Positions 1 to 52,612 of a stretch of 64,000 bases of DNA are shown here, one piece after another. Position numbers and translations under genes: made by a program. Under the pieces are notes generated by a model, which searched no databases, was not told where the DNA came from, and saw nothing but the letters and a program-made list of their open reading frames with translations. Every line of letters starts with the position of its first letter. Position 1 is the first letter of the stretch. The DNA is from Rhynchobatus australiae (lineage: Eukaryota), in assembly GCA_034780895.1 (NCBI GenBank), contig JAUZTB010000069.1, forward strand, positions 5,825,870 to 5,889,869, written 5' to 3'.

Positions 1-28390
<28,390 letters not shown>

Positions 28391-42450: not shown

Positions 42451-45400
42451 GCCTTTTGTTTCTCCTTGTGATATCACACTGTGATCATGTTAAAATTTTA
42501 AGGATTTAAAACCCAAGGAATGCTCCCCAAACCAGACAGTGGAGTCTGCATCGATGCATGAAATTGAACTTCACAGCATCATGAAAACCTGTTTTACTTC
42601 CAAACATCCCGTACATGTTTGAATGACGTGGGGGGGAAGAATATTGTTGGAAATGTTTTAAACCCCTTTGACTTGTGTCTGTTTTCTACTCATTGTACCT
42701 CCAATGGTTCATATTTTCTGTAATGTCCTGTCTGTAATGAAATCTCACCGACTACAAGCCTGTGCTTCCTCTAATCGGCCATATTCAGTGGTTTTCAAGC
42801 AATGGTGCAGAAATAAAATGTTGCAGATGTTGGAAATGTGAAATAAAAATAGGGAAGGTTGGAAGTACTTTGCACACAACACTACACACCTGTTTAAGCA
42901 TTGCAATTTGCTGCTCTCTAACTTAAATTTACATTTTTATGGTGGGGAAAGTCAGGTCATCAACTTGAAGTGTTAAGTCTGCATCTCACTCACTCTTGAC
43001 CGTCTGAGCATCTCCAGTATATTCTGTTTAATCAGTCTGCTTTCCCCATTCTGAAGGTATTAATCTTTTCGTGACTCCCAAGTCCATTCTTGCCCCTTCA
43101 CAATCCAGTCCCCTTCTCATGGGACTTTCCAATGGAAACTTCTATTCCTTGCCACCATCCAGGTGAACCAAACTTCCTTAGTGAAGGAAGTGATTCATGT
43201 GTCATTCCTCTCTAACAGCTTACCCACCACAGACGTGAGACTCACTGGCCTGTAATTCCTTGGACTATCCCTACTGCCTTTTTTGAACAAGGGGACAACA
43301 ATCCTCCAGCACCATCCCTGTCGATGACGAGGACTCAAAGATCCTTACCAGCGGTTCAACAATCTCCTCCCTCGCCTCTCGAAGCAGCCTGGGGAATATT
43401 CCGNNNNNNNNNNNNNGTCTTTTATCGGACCCACCTTTCCCCTAGCCATCCTTCTACCCTTTGTGTTCTCATAATTCAGCTAGAGCTAGTGAATCTCCTA
43501 AAATATTTAAGAATGGTGAAATCAGATCCCAGGTTAATGAGGAGAAAATAATTTGTCAAGGCTCCTGCTTGTTATCTCAGCCTGACTCCACACAAGGCCA
43601 CTGGGTAAGGAGCGGATCACATTTAGTTACAATGCTGTGGAGAGTGTCAGTCTTGCCTTTTAATGCCTTCGTTGAAACCTTCGAGGGAACTTGTGGTCAA
43701 GTCGAATTTATTGTCAGGTACATAAGTACAGTGAGGTGCAGATACTCTCTCTCTATATTTTATATAGAACCATCACAGCCATGTGGATTTGGCCAGCACC
43801 TGAATTATTCATGGCGTTGTACATAAATTATACCAGACGGCGAAGAAAAAAAACGCAAGTCCATGAGAGTGCAAGAGGTGGTGTGTAGTGTTGCATCGCT
43901 GAGGTGGGGGTTAAAGTTGTGCAAGAACCTGATGGTTGTGGGGCAGTAGCTGTTCCTGAAGCTGGTGGGGTGTCATTCCCTTCAAGTATCCCCTTTGGTC
44001 CCAGGTCCACTTCCTGAGTCTGGACACCTGCTGTCTGATGTCTCTCTATGATAAATGTTGGTGCATGGTCTTGTGGAGGGTGAAATGGTGTTAGTGGTGT
44101 GTACTGAGGGAAAAGTACATTGAATGATTGTACAAGTTTAATTCTACCCCTTCACTCAATAAAAAATAAAGATTATGGGTAAAAGTTCTTCATACAAAGA
44201 GTGATAGCTCTTTGACCTAAAAGAAAATTAGAAACACTTTGGTGCAGTGGATGAATTCTGAATGTCACTTCATTTCTTTTTGCCCTTCCTGTCCATGTTC
44301 TTGGGTAGATATTCTTCACCAACCTTGGTCTATTCCTTGAACCTACTATTACTAAAGCAATGGGCAGGCTTCCACAATTCCAACACTGGCTCTCCTCGCT
44401 GTTTCAGGCTTTGAAGTAGTTTTCATTTTATTACAATTGCAGCAAACCGTGAAGATAATTATAGACTTGGGAAGGTTCTGGGCCATCACATGGCAGATGA
44501 AATTTAACAGTGATTAATTTTAGTTGCAAGTATAAGCCTTCCCCCATCACCATCCTGTGATATGAGGGCGACCAAGAAATACAAAGAGGTTATTGGATGA
44601 GGGAGATTGACTCCGGAGCCCCACGCCCAACCAGCAGAATAACCAACATCAAAGTAGATGCTGGAAATTGGAAATAAATGTGTTGGATGGACTTGGTGAA
44701 TCAGTTGCAATATTAAGGCAATAATGTAATTGCTAATCTTTGAAAGGTGGAAACATTAACTTCCCATACTCCCCCATTCTCCACCCCACCCCCCCAGTAC
44801 ATGGATTTGTGAGACGATTTGCAGCTTCCTGCTTGTAACTTGCCCTTCATCACAACCTGCACCATTGAGCTTTACCCGCACACTAAGACCCATGCCCCCT
44901 TCTGCACTCCTCGGTAAGTGAAGCATGCGGCAAGACCTAGATCCAGACACCTAACCACCTACTCTTGACGTTCTCTACAGGGGCCCTGGTCATCAGAATC
45001 AAACCAGTGAACATCTCAGGGTGTCTGTGTAGTTTTTATTGTGACTTTGAGTCTGTTTTGGAGTAGAATGTGTGCAAAGATTTGGTGCCTAAGGGAGTTT
45101 AATCCCCCAGGTCCACCTTCCCATGCTTCATCCAAAGACCGTCCGTCCATCATAAGGTCAGAAGTGGGGATGATTAGACCATGTTCAATTCTATTTGCAG
45201 CAACTCAGGAGATGAGGTAGTCCATACCCGCCGTGCAGTAAAACTGAGGAGATACTCTGCCAATGGCTGATGAGTTGCAGGTGATTTAACCCAGGAAATA
45301 ACCACTCTCAGGAGAATGTCTAACCACCTACCCTTGACGATTCAATGGCACTGCCACCTCATCGTGCCCCACCATCAACATCCTGGCGAATCACCATTAG

Positions 45401-48400
45401 CCAGAAACTTAACTGGACCAGCCACACAAATACTGTGGCCACTGGAGTGATATCACCAGTGCTGTCTCTGGGGAAAATCCTCCAATCTACAGGCGGGTTA
45501 AGAGAACCAATGTCAGTGTCCTCTCCTGGGCCACGACCTCAGCATTGAGGCCCAGTTTACACTCAGCTAGCTCTGGTGGGCGGAAGGAGCGTAGAACATC
45601 CCAAACAGCTCCCCTGGCCCAGGTGGCAGAGTGTAGGGATTCAGCCATCTCAGAGCCTACTACACTGGTGTGGAAGCAAATCACCCTTGACCTAAGAAGA
45701 AAATATAAAAGCATTGAAACGTAGAAAAATAGAAGCAGGAACAGGCCACTTGGCACTTCAAGCCTGCTTCTTCATTCAATATGGCTGGTCCTCTCTCTCA
45801 ATACCATATCTCTGCACTCTCCCTATACTCCTTGATGCCTGTTTTGCCTTTGATAGATTTCTGTCTTAACATTCAGCAACGTGGCCTGCACAGCTTCTGA
45901 GCGAGAGAATTCCACTAATTGTGAATTTTGCGTTTGCAAAGTTAAATATCAGGTTGTTACTCAGTACTCAGTTTACTTTGCAAGTACGTCGGTAATGATA
46001 AACTGCAACAGTCCGGGAACTGGACAGTGGGACTTGCCTGAACGGGTCTTGACTGGCATCAACATGATTTACCAAAAGGTCCCCTCTGGTTCCATAAGCA
46101 GGTTTGCAATACCTGCAACCTTTGAAGAGATCTTTTGTCTTTATGGAACATTTTTTTTCTGTTCAGTGAATCTCAGCCAAGAACTAACCCTGTTGAAGTT
46201 TAGATATTCACTGTCACATTGTCTTGCACAGCAACGTCCAGTTAACCTGGTTAGGTGTTGCTGGCTAGCGGAGTATCTATTGGTTGTGGATAAATTTTTG
46301 AAAGATCTGGGAACTGAGGGCTGTGGGGAACTGGCACAGCAGAGGAGATGAGACCTGGGACAGATTGGCCGTGACTATAATGAATGGGGCAACAGGTCTA
46401 CAGCTCCTATTTTCATATGTCGGGTTATCCTCTGGCTCGATGACCAAACCTTGGAATGACAACTCCAACAGAGGAAGTGGTTGAGGCAGCTACAATGGTA
46501 TCATTTAAGCAGCACTTGGATAGGTACGTGGAGGGGCAGGGCTTGGAGGGATATGGGCCAAACGCAGGACATTGGGATGAGCTGGGTGGGCACCGTAGTC
46601 GACGTGGACTGGTTGGGCCGAAGGGCCTGTAGCCATGCTGTTGCTCTATGACACTGACACTATGGCTGAAGGGTAACCCCTTCACAGCACAGCCCTCCCC
46701 TGCACTCTGCCCAGGAGTCAGGTGGGATTCTCAGGAGGACAGTGGTGCTGGTGTCACCGGACCAGCAGCCAGACCTCTGGGTCACTGATCCAGTCACATG
46801 AGTTCAAATCCCAGCAGGGCAGCTGGAGATTTTAAATTCACTTGATTAAACAAAAACTGAAATTGTCCATCCTTACCCGACTCTGCTCCCACTGATAGAT
46901 TTCTATCTTAAGAATGTTCAGCAGCTTGGCCTCCATGGCATTTTGGGGAGAAGATTCCATTAATTTTGTGTTTGCAAAGTTAGATTTCAGAGTTTGGTTG
47001 TTACTTTAACAGCCTCTAGAGGGGTAATTCAGAATGGAGAATGATCGTTGATGTTCCTGATGTTCTTCGCCTCTCATCAAGAGTGCGTAAATTAAAATAA
47101 GATCCATAAACTTCCATTACAAAACAAGGCAGCGTAATGTTTCAGCTGCAAGTCGTCTTCATACAGCAGACTCTTGCTCATCACCAGAAGGTCCCAGCAA
47201 GACAACCGGAGGTCCCAGTTAGCTGTATCTACTCGTTACCTGATTTAGTGTCAAACAACATCACACACAGTTTCTCTAATGAGTGATGCTGCCCACGGTG
47301 CTCTGTGTGGACTGACACTGGTTTCAAAGGCAACAGTTATTTTTAACAAAAGTTATATCATTTGCTTTTTAATCAATTTAGATTTACTATTGGAATGACA
47401 GCAAACATTGCTATTCCTGACACTAAAAGAATATGATTAAGCTTTGCTAAATTTAATCAAATGTCACATTGCTTTAACGGTTTACACAATCAGTGGCACT
47501 GTTGAAGTTCCCCCTGCTTATAATGGCAAGCCACTTCACAGTACCCAGGCTGTTGATTGGTAAATCACCCTCAGAAGCAGACAACTCCAGCAGTAAAACC
47601 TTTCAGGGATTAATGCAGAGGCAGCAACAGTGTAATTAATCCATTGAAATCACTTTGTTGCAACCGCAATTGTCTGCATTTTTAATGTCACAAAATATGC
47701 TACTTGCATTTGAAAGCAATCGATTAAAACTTTTAAACACTCTTCCCCAATCCCCACTTCTAATTCCACGAGCAGCAGATGAAATGGAATCTTGACCTCA
47801 CAATCTACCTTGTTATGACCTTGCACCTTATTGTCGACCTGCACTGCACTTTCTCTGTAGTTGTAACACTTTCACTCTGCATTCTGTTATCGTTTTTACC
47901 CTGTACTTCCTCAATGCACTGTGTGATGAATTGATCTGCACAAACAGTATGCAAGACAAGTTTTCCACTGTACTTCAGTACATGTGACAATAATAAACCG
48001 ATTTACCAAGCCATCAGTCCTACACTTCTGCTCTGCTTCACAGTTGGATCATGGCTGATCTCTTACCTTAGTCCCACCCTCCTGCACTGACCCCCATATC
48101 CCTTGACCTCCTTGGTAGATTTTTAGACATTAATCTCCGTGTTGAATACACTCAGCATCTGAGCTTTCTCAGGTGGACCGTTACTCTCACTGCTCTCTGG
48201 GTGAAGAGATTTTTCTTTCTCATCTCAGTTCTGAGTAGTTGACCCTTTATTTTGAGACTCTGATCTCTGGTTATAGGCACCCCAGATAGGCAAAACATCA
48301 GCGCTTCATCTACCCCGTCAAGGACCTTGAGAATCTTGTACCTTTTCATTTGTCTAAACTTGGGAGTATAGGCACAGACTGCTTAACCTCTCCCCATCTG

Positions 48401-48755
48401 AGAAGCCTGGTATCCCTGGAATCAATCTGGTGAACCTTCACTGTGCTCCCATTGTTCAAATGTACCCTTCCCTAGGGTGGCGGAACAGCCCTGCAGACTA
48501 TATTTCCACATGTGGTCATGACTGTAAATAATTGGCCTTGTATTCGGAACTCATCCTTTCTTTCCTTTATTCATCTGGATGTTGACAGTGAGGCCAGCGT
48601 TTATCACGTGCCGTACCGCCATGAGAAGGTGATCCCACATTGCTGTTGGGCAGACAGTTCCAGGACTGGTGATATAAGATCAGGCTTGCGCACAACTTCA
48701 AGCAAGGTGAGCAGGTGGTGATCTTCCATGCGTCTGCTTCCCTTGTTCCTGGTCG

Positions 48756-49545
48756 TAGAGCACTACAGCACAGAAACAGGCCCTTTGGCCCATCTAGTCC
48801 ATGCCGACCTGATCTGCCTAGTTCCATCTCCCTGCACCCAGACCCTATCCCTCCAAACCCCTCCCATCCATGCACCTATCCAAACCTCTCTTATAACTGT
48901 TACCAGTGAACCCACGTCCACCACTTTCATTGGCAGCTCGTTCCACACTCGCATCGCCCTCTGAGTGAAGAAGTTCCCCGTCAGATTCCCCTTGTATATT
49001 TCACCTTTCACCCTAAACCCATGTCCTCTAGCTCTTGTCTCACCCAACCCGAGGGGGGAGAAAGCCTGCATGCATTCACCCTACCTGTACCCCTCATAAT
49101 TTTGTATATCTCTAAGATCTCCCCTCATTCTCCTGCACTCCAGGGAATAAAGTCCTAACCTATTCAACTTATAACTCAGGTCCTCAAGTCCCAACAGCAT
49201 CTGTGCAAATTTTCTCTGCACTCTTTCAAGCTTATTGATATCTTTGCTATAGGTGGGTGACCAGAACTGCACACGATTCTCTAAATTCGGCCTCACCAAC
49301 ATCTTGTACAACTTCAACGTAACATCCCAACTCCTGTACTCAGTGCCCTGATTTATGAAGGCCAAAGTGCCAAAAGCTCTCTTTACAACCCTATCTGCCT
49401 CTGACACCACTTTCAAGGAACTATGGATCTGTATTCCCAGGTCCCTCTGTTCTACTGCACACCTCAGTGCCCTACCATTGCATACCCTACCATACCAGTG
49501 TAGGTCTTACCCTGGTTTGTCCTCCCAAAGTGCATCACCTCACAC
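48756..49545 (-). mobile_element. CR1-type LINE 3' fragment
   Basis: ORFs 49081..49416 (LKLYKMLVRPNLENRVQFWSP...ERVQRKFAQML) and 48763..49071 (RARGHGFRVKGE...FFTQRAMRVWNELP). Confidence 0.9.
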
Positions 49546-49852
49546 CATCAGATTTGGAACTGTCGGAATTTCTGAACAATGGGATGATGGATTATCGGAG
49601 TTTTATTGATCTCCTTATGTGGTTTAGGACTAAATCATGTTTGATAACTTTCCTGTGAAGCACCTTGGGGAGTTTTAAGACACTTTATGAATGAAGTTAG
49701 TTGCTGAAACTTCACTTCAAACATTATTCACTTTGTTTTTGACTGCATGAAGTTTCTTAAACATGCAATAGTAACTTAGTACAAAATAGTTTCTCATTCA
49801 TAATTTTCAAAAATTTTGCAATTTCTTTTTGTTTTGAATTACACCATTGCAG

Positions 49853-50033
49853 AGATAACAAGACATACCTGTATATACAAATGAAGTTGTACGAGAACAA
49901 CTTAAAAGAATGGATAGAAGAGTACCAAACTGGTCAGCCGCAGCAGAAAGAAGTTTCCTTGGACATAATGCGTCAATTATTAGATGGAGTTGAATACATT
50001 CATCAGCAGGAAATGATTCATCGAGACCTGAAG
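49853..50033 (+). CDS. Orphan eIF2-alpha kinase (PKR/EIF2AK2-like) exon, kinase subdomains V-VIb
   Basis: T-rich tract then cattgcAG; 181 nt, phase 2 to 0, stop-free: DNKTYLYIQMKLYENNLKEWIEEYQTGQPQQKEVSLDIMRQLLDGVEYIHQQEMIHRDLK; donor GTCAGA. LYIQM and IHRDLK are eIF2-alpha kinase hallmarks. Not called in the ORF track. Confidence 0.85.
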
Positions 50034-51199
50034 GTCAGACCACTGAGATTGTGATTCATGGTTGATTATGGTCAAGTTTAGATTACAGGAAGGTTTGTCC
50101 ACTCCTTTCTGAGTACTCACTCCCCATTCCTCCCACACCACCAATGGTGGCTGTGCCCTCATCAGTTTAGGCTAACGTTTCACTTTTGCAAACTCACAGC
50201 AAGTTAATCCCATCAATACCTTCCCTCTGCAACACTCTTACACACACACTCTCTTACACACACTCTTACACACACATACACCTTAACTCAGGGGGGTGAC
50301 AGGCTTTACCCTAACGCGCGCATCTTTGGGATGTGGAACAGAGAGAACATGCAACCTCCACACTGACAGCAGCTGAGGCCAGGATCAAACCCACATCTCT
50401 AGAGCTGTGAGGCAGCATCAAAACCTACTGTGCCACTGTGTGGTGCTCCATAGTCTTGGCTGTCCCTTCCTCTCTGTGTCAGCGCTCCCAGCCTGCAACA
50501 CTCGGCAGTCTCTGCATCTCTCTAACTCTGGCCTTGGCACCAAGCTCTGGAACTCCCTCACTAAACCTCTGCCTCAATATCTTACTGCTCCACTCCTCGA
50601 AACCAAAGCCAACCTTTCCTAATGTCCCCCTTCTCTGTAACCATCTGCAAGTCTACAATCCCCCTCACCCCTACAACCTCTTCAGTCCCTCCAATTCTGG
50701 CCTAAGCACATCCCGATTTCCCTAAATCTCCAGCTTTCCCATCTCTTTCCTCCTGTAACAACATTCCTAACTCTGAAGAAGCCTGGTTATCTAGCTAATA
50801 TCAATCTATATGCAGCTTGGGTTAAAGTTCATCTGTTAATGCAGTCTGGAGAAATGATGTGCTATATAAATGCAAACTGCTGTTGTTACACAGCAGGGCA
50901 CAGGGAAGACCCTCGCTCTTCACAGCCCTGTTCCTGTCTCTTGATTAGATTTGAAGGGTTCAGTGAGAGTAATTCACAGCTCTCACGGCTTGTAGTTCCC
51001 CCCAGTCCAGTCAGAGTTTGTTCCCCAGGGTTCAGTCAGAGGTTCACCTGTTGCCCAGAGGGTGGGGCAGTTCCCGGGTTCAGTAAGTTTGTCTGTACTG
51101 GAGCACAATACTGGTGGGGACGAGTCTGTCGCTGTAGAGCGCTGGGGTACAGCACTGCTGGACTGATGGAGTGGGTTAGATTATCCAGGCTTTTGTGAA

Positions 51200-52612
51200 C
51201 AGAGTCACAGTGTTATACAGCATAGAGACAGGCCCTTTGGCTCAACTCATCCATGCCCACTTAAGCTAGTCCCACTTGCCTGTGTTTGGCCCGTATCCTC
51301 CCGAACCGTTCCTGTCCACATACTTATCCAAGCGTCTTTTAAATGTTGTTATCGTACCCACCTCAACCACTTCCTCTGGCAGTTTGTTCCATACACTCAC
51401 CACCCTCTGCGTGAAGAAGTTGCTCCTCAGGTCCCTCTTAAATCTTTCCCCTCACCTCCTAGTTTTTGGTTCCCTTCCCCTGGGAAAATGACAATGTGTG
51501 TTCACCCTACCTATGCCCCAAATGATTTTATACACCTCTCTAAGGTCATCCCTGGGTCTCCTATGCACCACAGAATAAAGTCCCAGCCTGCCCAACCTCT
51601 CCCTATATCTCCAACCTTTGAGTCTTGGCAGCATTCGTGTAAATCTTCTTTGCACTCTTTCCAGGTTAGTGACATTCTCCCTATTAGAAGGTGACCAAGA
51701 CTGTACACTGTACTCCAAGTGCGGTCTCACTAAACATCTGGTACAACTGCAACATAACATCCCAGCTTCTGCACCCAGTGCCCTGCCTGATGAGGGCCAG
51801 TGTGCCAAAAGCCTCCTTCACCGCCCTGTCCACCCGTGGTGCCACTTTCAGTGAACTATCTCGGACAGCACGGCGGTGCGGCGGTTCGTGTGACGATATT
51901 ACAGCGCCAGTGACCCGGGTTCAATTCCGGCCGCTGTCTGTAAGGAGTTTGTACGTTCTCCCCGTGTCTGCGCGGGTTTCCTCCGGGTGCTCCGGTTTCC
52001 TCCCACNNNNNNNNNNNNNNNNNNNNNNNNNNNNNNNNNNNNNNNNNNNNNNNNNNNNNNNNNNNNNNNNNNNNNNNNNNNNNNNNNNNNNNNNNNNNNN
52101 NNNNNNATGGATCCGTATTCCCAGGTCCCTCTGTTCTACCGCACACCTCAGAGCCCTACAATTCACTGAACAAGTCTTACCCTGGTTTGTCCTCCCAAAG
52201 TGCACCACCTCACACTTGTCTGCATTAAATTCCATCTGCCATTTTTCAGCCCATTGTCCCAGCTGGTCAAAATCTTGCTGCAAGCTTTGATAGTCTTCCT
52301 CGCTATCTACTGTGCCCCCAATCTTGGAGTCATCCACAGATTTGCTGATCCAGTTTACCACATTATCATGAGCAACAACAGACTCAGCATTGATCCCGGA
52401 GGTGCACCACTAGTCACAGGCCTCCAGTCGGAGAGAACCATCTACCACCACTCTCTGGCTTCTTCTGCTAAGCCGATGTTGAATCCAATTGGCTACTTCA
52501 TCCTGAATGCCAAGCGACTTAACCTTCTGGCGCAGCCTCATGTGCAGGACTCTGTCTGCACGGACTTTGGCAAGGCCTTTGACAATGTCCACTGTCTCTC
52601 CTTCATCAACAG
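51200..52612 (-). mobile_element. CR1-type LINE (RT to 3' end) with nested SINE
   Basis: ORFs read LVRPHLEYSVQSWSP...ERVQRRFTRMLP and WAEKWQMEFNADKCEVVHFGRTN. Confidence 0.9.
51863..52006 (+). mobile_element. Young HE1/V-SINE inserted into the CR1 copy (3' part lies in the gap)
   Basis: Near-identical to the 34891 copy; it splits the CR1 sequence gaactat^ggatc, which is intact at about 49419-49430. Confidence 0.85.

Follow-up and report, generated by a model that had tools for sequence, protein, structure and literature searches.

The gene encoding the eIF2-alpha kinase PKR (EIF2AK2) carries its kinase domain on seven exons in all PKR genes examined in one report, whose accessible part gives the first, fifth and sixth of them as 120, 102 and 63 bp in zebrafish and notes for the zebrafish, pufferfish and macaque drafts that PKR exons were distributed among several contigs or were missing from them (PMC2291453). 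According to the available portion of a second report, whale shark PKR is active in yeast and phosphorylates eIF2-alpha (PMC11305385), and in the accessible text of a third GPATCH11 and HEATR5B accompany EIF2AK2 at human 2p22.2 (PMC12953482). Genes that are split over scaffolds constitute a defined class of assembly artefact in the part of the literature available on this subject (PMC9516821). Word searches of the open-access literature found no account of a ray PKR that was displaced or split.

The window analyzed here is a stretch of 64,000 nucleotides from the ray Rhynchobatus australiae (assembly GCA_034780895.1, contig JAUZTB010000069.1, positions 5,825,870 to 5,889,869 of the forward strand; scaffold C69 below), in which a sequence-only reading had noticed a solitary PKR-like exon downstream of GAPVD1 and had offered four origins for it: a duplicated or captured exon, a relic of a lineage-specific paralogue, part of a long-intron gene, or a misplaced contig. 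We consider it highly probable that the solitary position reflects a mis-joined or misplaced contig and not a relic or a paralogue.

Results

A single PKR exon downstream of GAPVD1 in the assembly

The 181-nt stop-free exon that had been described, with its AG and GT boundaries, holds in coordinates, length and features (Table 1). Its first base completes an upstream codon (phase 2), 60 stop-free codons follow, and the exon exits in phase 0; the acceptor region is T-rich, as had been noted, with pyrimidines at 27 of 45 positions and a terminal CAG whose AG is the sole one within 45 nt upstream. The encoded peptide scored 38.9 bits against Pfam Pkinase (cut-off 31.7). When 14 shark and ray PKR proteins were searched against the window by tblastn, this exon was the sole match, at E-values of 1e-16 to 1e-21, with the runner-up at 0.38. 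As judged from sequence, 49853-50033 is a genuine PKR exon, far above chance.

Table 1. Coordinates of the features discussed, counted from the first nucleotide of the window.
Feature	Position	Strand	Basis
Last GAPVD1 coding exon (unrelated upstream neighbour in the assembly)	about 28238..28387	+	Protein matches
High-copy repeat, candidate left mis-join 1	47783..48009		C2 contig before the gap ends in a same-orientation copy
Largest piece proposed for the C2 PKR intron gap	47875..51951	+	Inferred; 4,077 nt versus 3,883 N
High-copy fragment, presumably LINE-like, candidate left mis-join 2	48760..49545		Repeat register, contig breaks
T-rich acceptor region, final CAG	49808..49852	+	Sequence inspection
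Predicted third of seven PKR (EIF2AK2) kinase-domain exons	49853..50033	+	Kinase insert end through catalytic-loop HRDLK, phase 2 to phase 0
GT splice donor	50034..50039	+	Sequence inspection
Repeat at contig end, presumably SINE-like	51870..52006 (start approximate)	+	Overlap with C2 contig

The gene upstream of the exon is 98% identical over 66 aa to named GAPVD1 proteins and is complete and in order (window 1-28387, C69:5781354-5854256), with 24 exon matches at 80-98% identity to Hypanus GAPVD1. The position downstream of GAPVD1 stands with respect to the identity of that gene and the order in the assembly, whereas the true chromosomal place of the exon was not confirmed. As a control, GAPVD1 placed 24/25 matches collinearly on C69, the remaining one being a 39% paralogue; since all 24 orthologous matches are in order, the assembly does not scatter exons in general. 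The earlier failure to see companion kinase exons nearby was borne out: tblastn with shark and ray PKR revealed no other PKR exon in the window, and a search at E<=0.05 over the 184 kb of C69 that run from the start of the window to 120 kb beyond it (5.7% N) found none either. A long-intron gene on the window's own scaffold was rejected on this search.

Assignment of the exon to PKR

A protein search with the 60-aa peptide returned 356 matches, and the most similar among the 120 listed were ray PKRs. Identity over the whole exon among these listed matches was 73% for Mobula, 72% for Hypanus and Hemitrygon, 70% for Amblyraja and 64% for Narcine, and the matched PKRs from all five carry dsRNA-binding domains (PF00035); the best E-values among the protein matches listed belonged to long teleost PKR models of ~50% identity. 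Searched against its own genome, the peptide gave two matches among 51 candidates scored, namely the exon itself and a 38% match on scaffold C64 that was called PERK-like by its likeness to a solved-structure PERK alignment. PERK (EIF2AK3) also came top in the solved-structure search, at 39.2 bits with human PKR at 37.2, scores by which this search alone cannot separate the two. The attribution to PKR rather than to PERK, HRI or GCN2 proved right, the peptide being 70-73% identical to four ray PKRs in the protein search versus 38% to the ray's own PERK-like exon. Orthology to PERK was rejected on the existence of that separate C64 exon. By orthology, from which its function is read, the exon is an ordinary member of jawed-vertebrate PKR.

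The best 120 of the 356 protein matches included no PKR of a very close relative with this exon. Pristis pectinata GPATCH11 is 99% identical to the ray's own GPATCH11 exon, yet the Pristis PKR is not among the matches listed; the Pristis PKR model may lack the exon or be missing.

The remainder of the PKR gene on scaffold C2

Mobula PKR gave 61 matches in the assembly (68 of 233 candidates scored), which were refined on extracted stretches. Ten PKR exons lie collinearly on the minus strand of scaffold C2, from 10576146 to 10524315, and comprise five N-terminal exons, in which two dsRNA-binding domains are encoded, and five exons for the kinase, the last of which includes the stop. Exactly two kinase exons are absent from this gene, both at N gaps, with N runs of 3,883, 1,259 and 488 between the C2 exons on either side of the absent pair; the PKR region on C2 is 37% N versus 6% for the window region. 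Residues 457-515 of Mobula PKR match the window alone, and residues 515-562 match C66:31631055-31631186 alone.

Joined in order, the seven kinase exons, all AG/GT-bounded and of 120, 84, 181, 132, 105, 63 and 102 nt, yield a single 262-codon frame that is free of internal stops, through which the glycine loop, the catalytic lysine, HRDLKPAN, DFG and SPEQ follow one another; with the window exon left out, the frame contains 7 stops. The upstream C2 exon, which ends in phase 2, forms an arginine codon with the first base of the window exon, as in other rays. In their matched frames, all 12 PKR exons found are free of stops and of frame breaks.

The C2 PKR has a GPATCH11 exon at a distance of 35 kb upstream (Pfam G-patch; 99% identical to Pristis pectinata GPATCH11), and beyond that exon stands a HEAT-repeat gene (weak HEAT matches) that we take to be HEATR5B. 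C2 is, by homology and gene order, the orthologous PKR locus, and this synteny holds for C2 and not for the window position. NDUFAF7, presumably a neighbour of EIF2AK2 in human, lends no synteny support, because NDUFAF7-family exons occur at C76:123007196-123025904 and not beside the C2 PKR; the human order on that side is not kept, be it in the animal or in the assembly. A search for MAPKAP1 (SIN1_PH) returned no match anywhere, controls included.

Nothing of ortholog quality was found anywhere in the assembly for the third dsRNA-binding domain and linker (about residues 211-388), for which the interval C2:10539435-10563800 consists of N at 15,081/24,365 nt (62%). Either this domain is unassembled or the lineage has two domains, like the Narcine models. 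Through the C2 link, dsRNA-binding domains 1 and 2 would lie in cis with the window exon.

A companion stray exon on scaffold C66

The kinase exon that comes after the window exon in PKR, 132 nt long and encoding the DFG motif, stands by itself at C66:31631055-31631186 on the minus strand, and no further PKR exon was found at E<=0.05 in 120 kb of C66 (22% N). Its contig, which says more about the displacement than the window contig does, looks chimeric and anchored on C66 by its non-PKR half. The PKR half, of 2,000 nt, has a GC content of 0.533, and the other half, with a Ras-family exon, one of 0.42; C2 contigs between kinase exons have 0.48-0.54. The two halves meet at a SINE in register with the start of the next C2 contig. 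At 2,000 nt the PKR piece exceeds the 1,259-N gap on C2.

The Ras-family exon is the first coding exon of a small GTPase (C66:31628596-31628811, minus), which we take to be RASL10-like; it shares its strand with the stray PKR exon, lies 2.2 kb downstream of that exon and has one paralogue, at 51%, on C57. An annotator could falsely fuse the two.

Repeats at the contig edges

The window stretch 43417-52006 contains no N run, and its final 55 nt (51952-52006) recur without a difference, in gene orientation, at the start of the C2 contig that comes after the 3,883-N gap. This exact 55-mer is repeat sequence, present at 3/8 distinct core copies in 305 kb, and just 11/326 contig ends examined fall within the SINE core. 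On the left, the end of the C2 contig before the gap aligns to 47793-47874 in the same orientation, at 85% likeness (15% different), and the stretch after the next gap in the window (52107 on) starts at the register of 49423 in the LINE-like repeat. The displaced piece would span about 49420-51951 if the left join lies in that LINE-like repeat. A comparison of repeat variants, with 6/82 and 15/131 positions off the column majority in the window and 9/79 on C2, picked out no left join, and the GC content in the window contig, 0.437 versus 0.458, has no clear step. For both stray exons, the contig ends or shifts in character where a repeat matches the edges of the C2 gaps.

Four sequencing runs were compared with 46700-52000, among them X1, which bears the same species label, and X3, from a related organism. 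Contigs from X1 match the window with 0 differences at 46789-47811, 47980-48781, 49517-50063 and 50044-51290; X1 may be the assembly's own sample and is thus perhaps not independent of it. The corresponding X3 pieces are about 3% diverged, with 16 differences over 538 nt in the exon contig. Among the contigs listed, coverage breaks off between 47811 and 47980, and none spans 48781-49517; because no listed contig bridges either repeat to the left of the exon, the window joins are unconfirmed, although repeats of this kind interrupt short-read contigs in any case. The runs compared with this interval showed neither a read or read pair nor a contig that would join the exon to C2. Among the runs listed as containing the exon there was no RNA run, an outcome that speaks neither for nor against expression.

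The X3 exon contig begins with 49 letters that depart from the window at 49546-49548, where the LINE-like fragment ends. This insertion may differ or be absent in the related organism.

Discussion

A misplaced contig as the best explanation

The other PKR exons lie on another scaffold, around gaps that the window exon fits exactly, and its lonely position is therefore most likely an assembly error. The misplaced contig that the sequence-only reading had listed last thus becomes the strongly favoured origin, on the fit of phase, the single copy, the gaps on C2 and the repeats at the edges. We propose that the exon would be the third kinase exon, the one lacking from the ray's single PKR on C2, and that assembly would have mis-joined or misplaced its contig at a high-copy repeat and so carried it onto C69. 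In the living ray, the exon would reside in the intron gap C2:10534079-10537961 and would be spliced in cis, from the exon ending at C2:10538498 to the window exon and onward to the 132-nt exon now on C66, giving as product an ordinary dsRNA-activated eIF2-alpha kinase. We infer that the exon is physically linked to C2, where the left join lies, the splicing and the kinase activity.

A real recent copy of a PKR segment as an unlikely origin

A PKR segment of 2.5-4 kb might recently have been inserted downstream of GAPVD1 by repeat-mediated duplication or transduction, with its parent hidden in the C2 gap; we regard this as unlikely. PKR duplications have reportedly occurred in bats and in tarsiers. 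They are described also for fishes in the accessible part of PMC2291453, the piece in the window is flanked by repeats, and the parent position is unsequenced on C2, where the N runs are perhaps withheld sequence and not gaps, so that a second copy could hide there. Raw-read depth gives a further hint, with 3.8 and 4.8 in two exon bins versus a mean of 1.7 over 11 unique flank bins; this is ~2.5-fold the flank mean on ~10 reads, from two runs summed by hand that represent 1% and 4% of their reads, with one flank bin itself at 4.8, and it leaves a duplicate weakly open.

Contig depth, on the other hand, is single-copy-like over the exon in both runs, at 5.8 in X1 versus flanks of 7.1, 9.9 and 6.6, and at 4.7 in X3 versus flanks of 5.6, 10.4, 7.0, 6.5 and 4.6, and no second allele is seen there in the X1 contig. 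The genome copy count that had been proposed for the exon region came to one copy in the assembly, by peptide and DNA searches alike; the DNA search with 49510-50200 gave 40 matches, in which the exon was covered by the window alone and the others were short repeat matches in the first 169 nt. A duplicated or captured exon, as first suggested, must derive from a parent, of which the assembly contains no copy. The next exon, moreover, would have had to be duplicated separately to a third chromosome, with its parent likewise hidden, and the window exon is present, without decay, in the ~3% diverged related organism. No second PKR was found in 290 kb of C2 (37% N).

Dispersal or a relic as improbable readings

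A true rearrangement, in which two exons lie on other chromosomes and PKR is either dead or trans-spliced, would account for two stray exons that are both single-copy with splice sites kept, and for the lack of a close-relative PKR with the exon among the best 120 of 356 matches despite the 99% identical sawfish GPATCH11. It would, however, demand that two consecutive exons moved to two chromosomes. N gaps of suitable size stand exactly where the exons are missing, all 12/12 exons found are free of stops and frame breaks, and five other rays have contiguous PKR protein models that include the exon. We judge such a dispersal very unlikely. Vertebrate trans-splicing between chromosomes is uncommon and prone to artefacts, and the special case in which the ray's only PKR is split over three chromosomes, with two consecutive kinase exons trans-spliced into an intact antiviral kinase, is hardly credible.

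The probability is slight, too, and below that of a dispersed gene, that the exon is what remains of a second PKR paralogue, of PKR-sis or of PKZ. PKR-sis kinases, which have no dsRNA-binding domains, occur in cartilaginous fishes according to the available portion of PMC11305385, and a tree of the 60-aa peptide, with 1/15 inner branches well supported, gives the exon no firm place among the rays. In the same tree the path distance from the exon to Mobula PKR is 0.36, and teleost PKR/PKZ form another group. When the two stray exons (window and C66) were taken together, they grouped with ray PKR against shark PKR with support of 100/99, and five C2 exons likewise separated rays from sharks (99/98), both trees having their resolution limited to rays versus sharks. 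The nearest proteins among the matches listed, at 70-76% identity, all bear dsRNA-binding domains (PF00035); no partner exons occur in 184 kb of C69, nor a second PKR in 290 kb of C2.

The exon matches Mobula at 44/58 positions, where skate matches Mobula at 41/58, and the five C2 exons are identical to Mobula at 103/155 positions, compared with 91/155 for skate. No marks of a pseudogene (stops, frameshifts, lost splice sites, faster divergence) were seen in the exon, which by these measures is conserved at ortholog level, without decay. A relic would be expected to have diverged or to have partner exons, and the lineage-specific paralogue thus finds no support in an exon that is conserved like the orthologous exons and completes the frame of the C2 PKR. 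Membership in PKR-sis or PKZ is improbable, given the PF00035 domains of the nearest relatives and the separate group formed by teleost PKR/PKZ, PKR-sis being represented here by its published description.

Implications and comparison with known systems

If the misplaced contig is the true explanation, there is no new biology here, and the outcome is a correction to a gene model. Users of this assembly would score the ray PKR as a pseudogene or as lost, though its seven kinase exons are all present, on three scaffolds, and share an open frame. When a vertebrate draft is rich in gaps, a solitary intact exon calls first for comparison with the remaining parts of its gene. A real extra copy or a really split gene, both unlikely, are the sole readings of interest to immunologists.

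Among described genes, the PKRs of Mobula hypostoma, Hypanus sabinus, Hemitrygon akajei and Amblyraja radiata come closest, with junction sequence alike on both sides of the exon, and the likeness to ray PKR extends to the seven-exon kinase domain and, on C2, to the upstream dsRNA-binding exons and the GPATCH11 neighbour; the window exon differs from ray PKR solely in its placement in the assembly. PERK (EIF2AK3) has a kinase-subfamily motif in common with the exon, and the PERK-like exon of the same genome is just 38% identical to it. True PKR duplications, as in fish and reportedly in bats and tarsiers, resemble this locus in that they concern a duplication-prone gene, whereas 290 kb of C2 hold no tandem paralogue. 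The fish tandem PKRs and PKZ, as far as the accessible part of PMC2291453 describes them, are whole tandem genes, whereas here there is one exon and no parent copy. The 'fragmented gene' artefact, in the available text of PMC9516821, resembles the present case in having the exons of one gene on several scaffolds, a gap-rich draft, repeats at the breaks and raised GC; it was proven there against long-read assemblies, whereas here it is proposed from the draft assembly itself.
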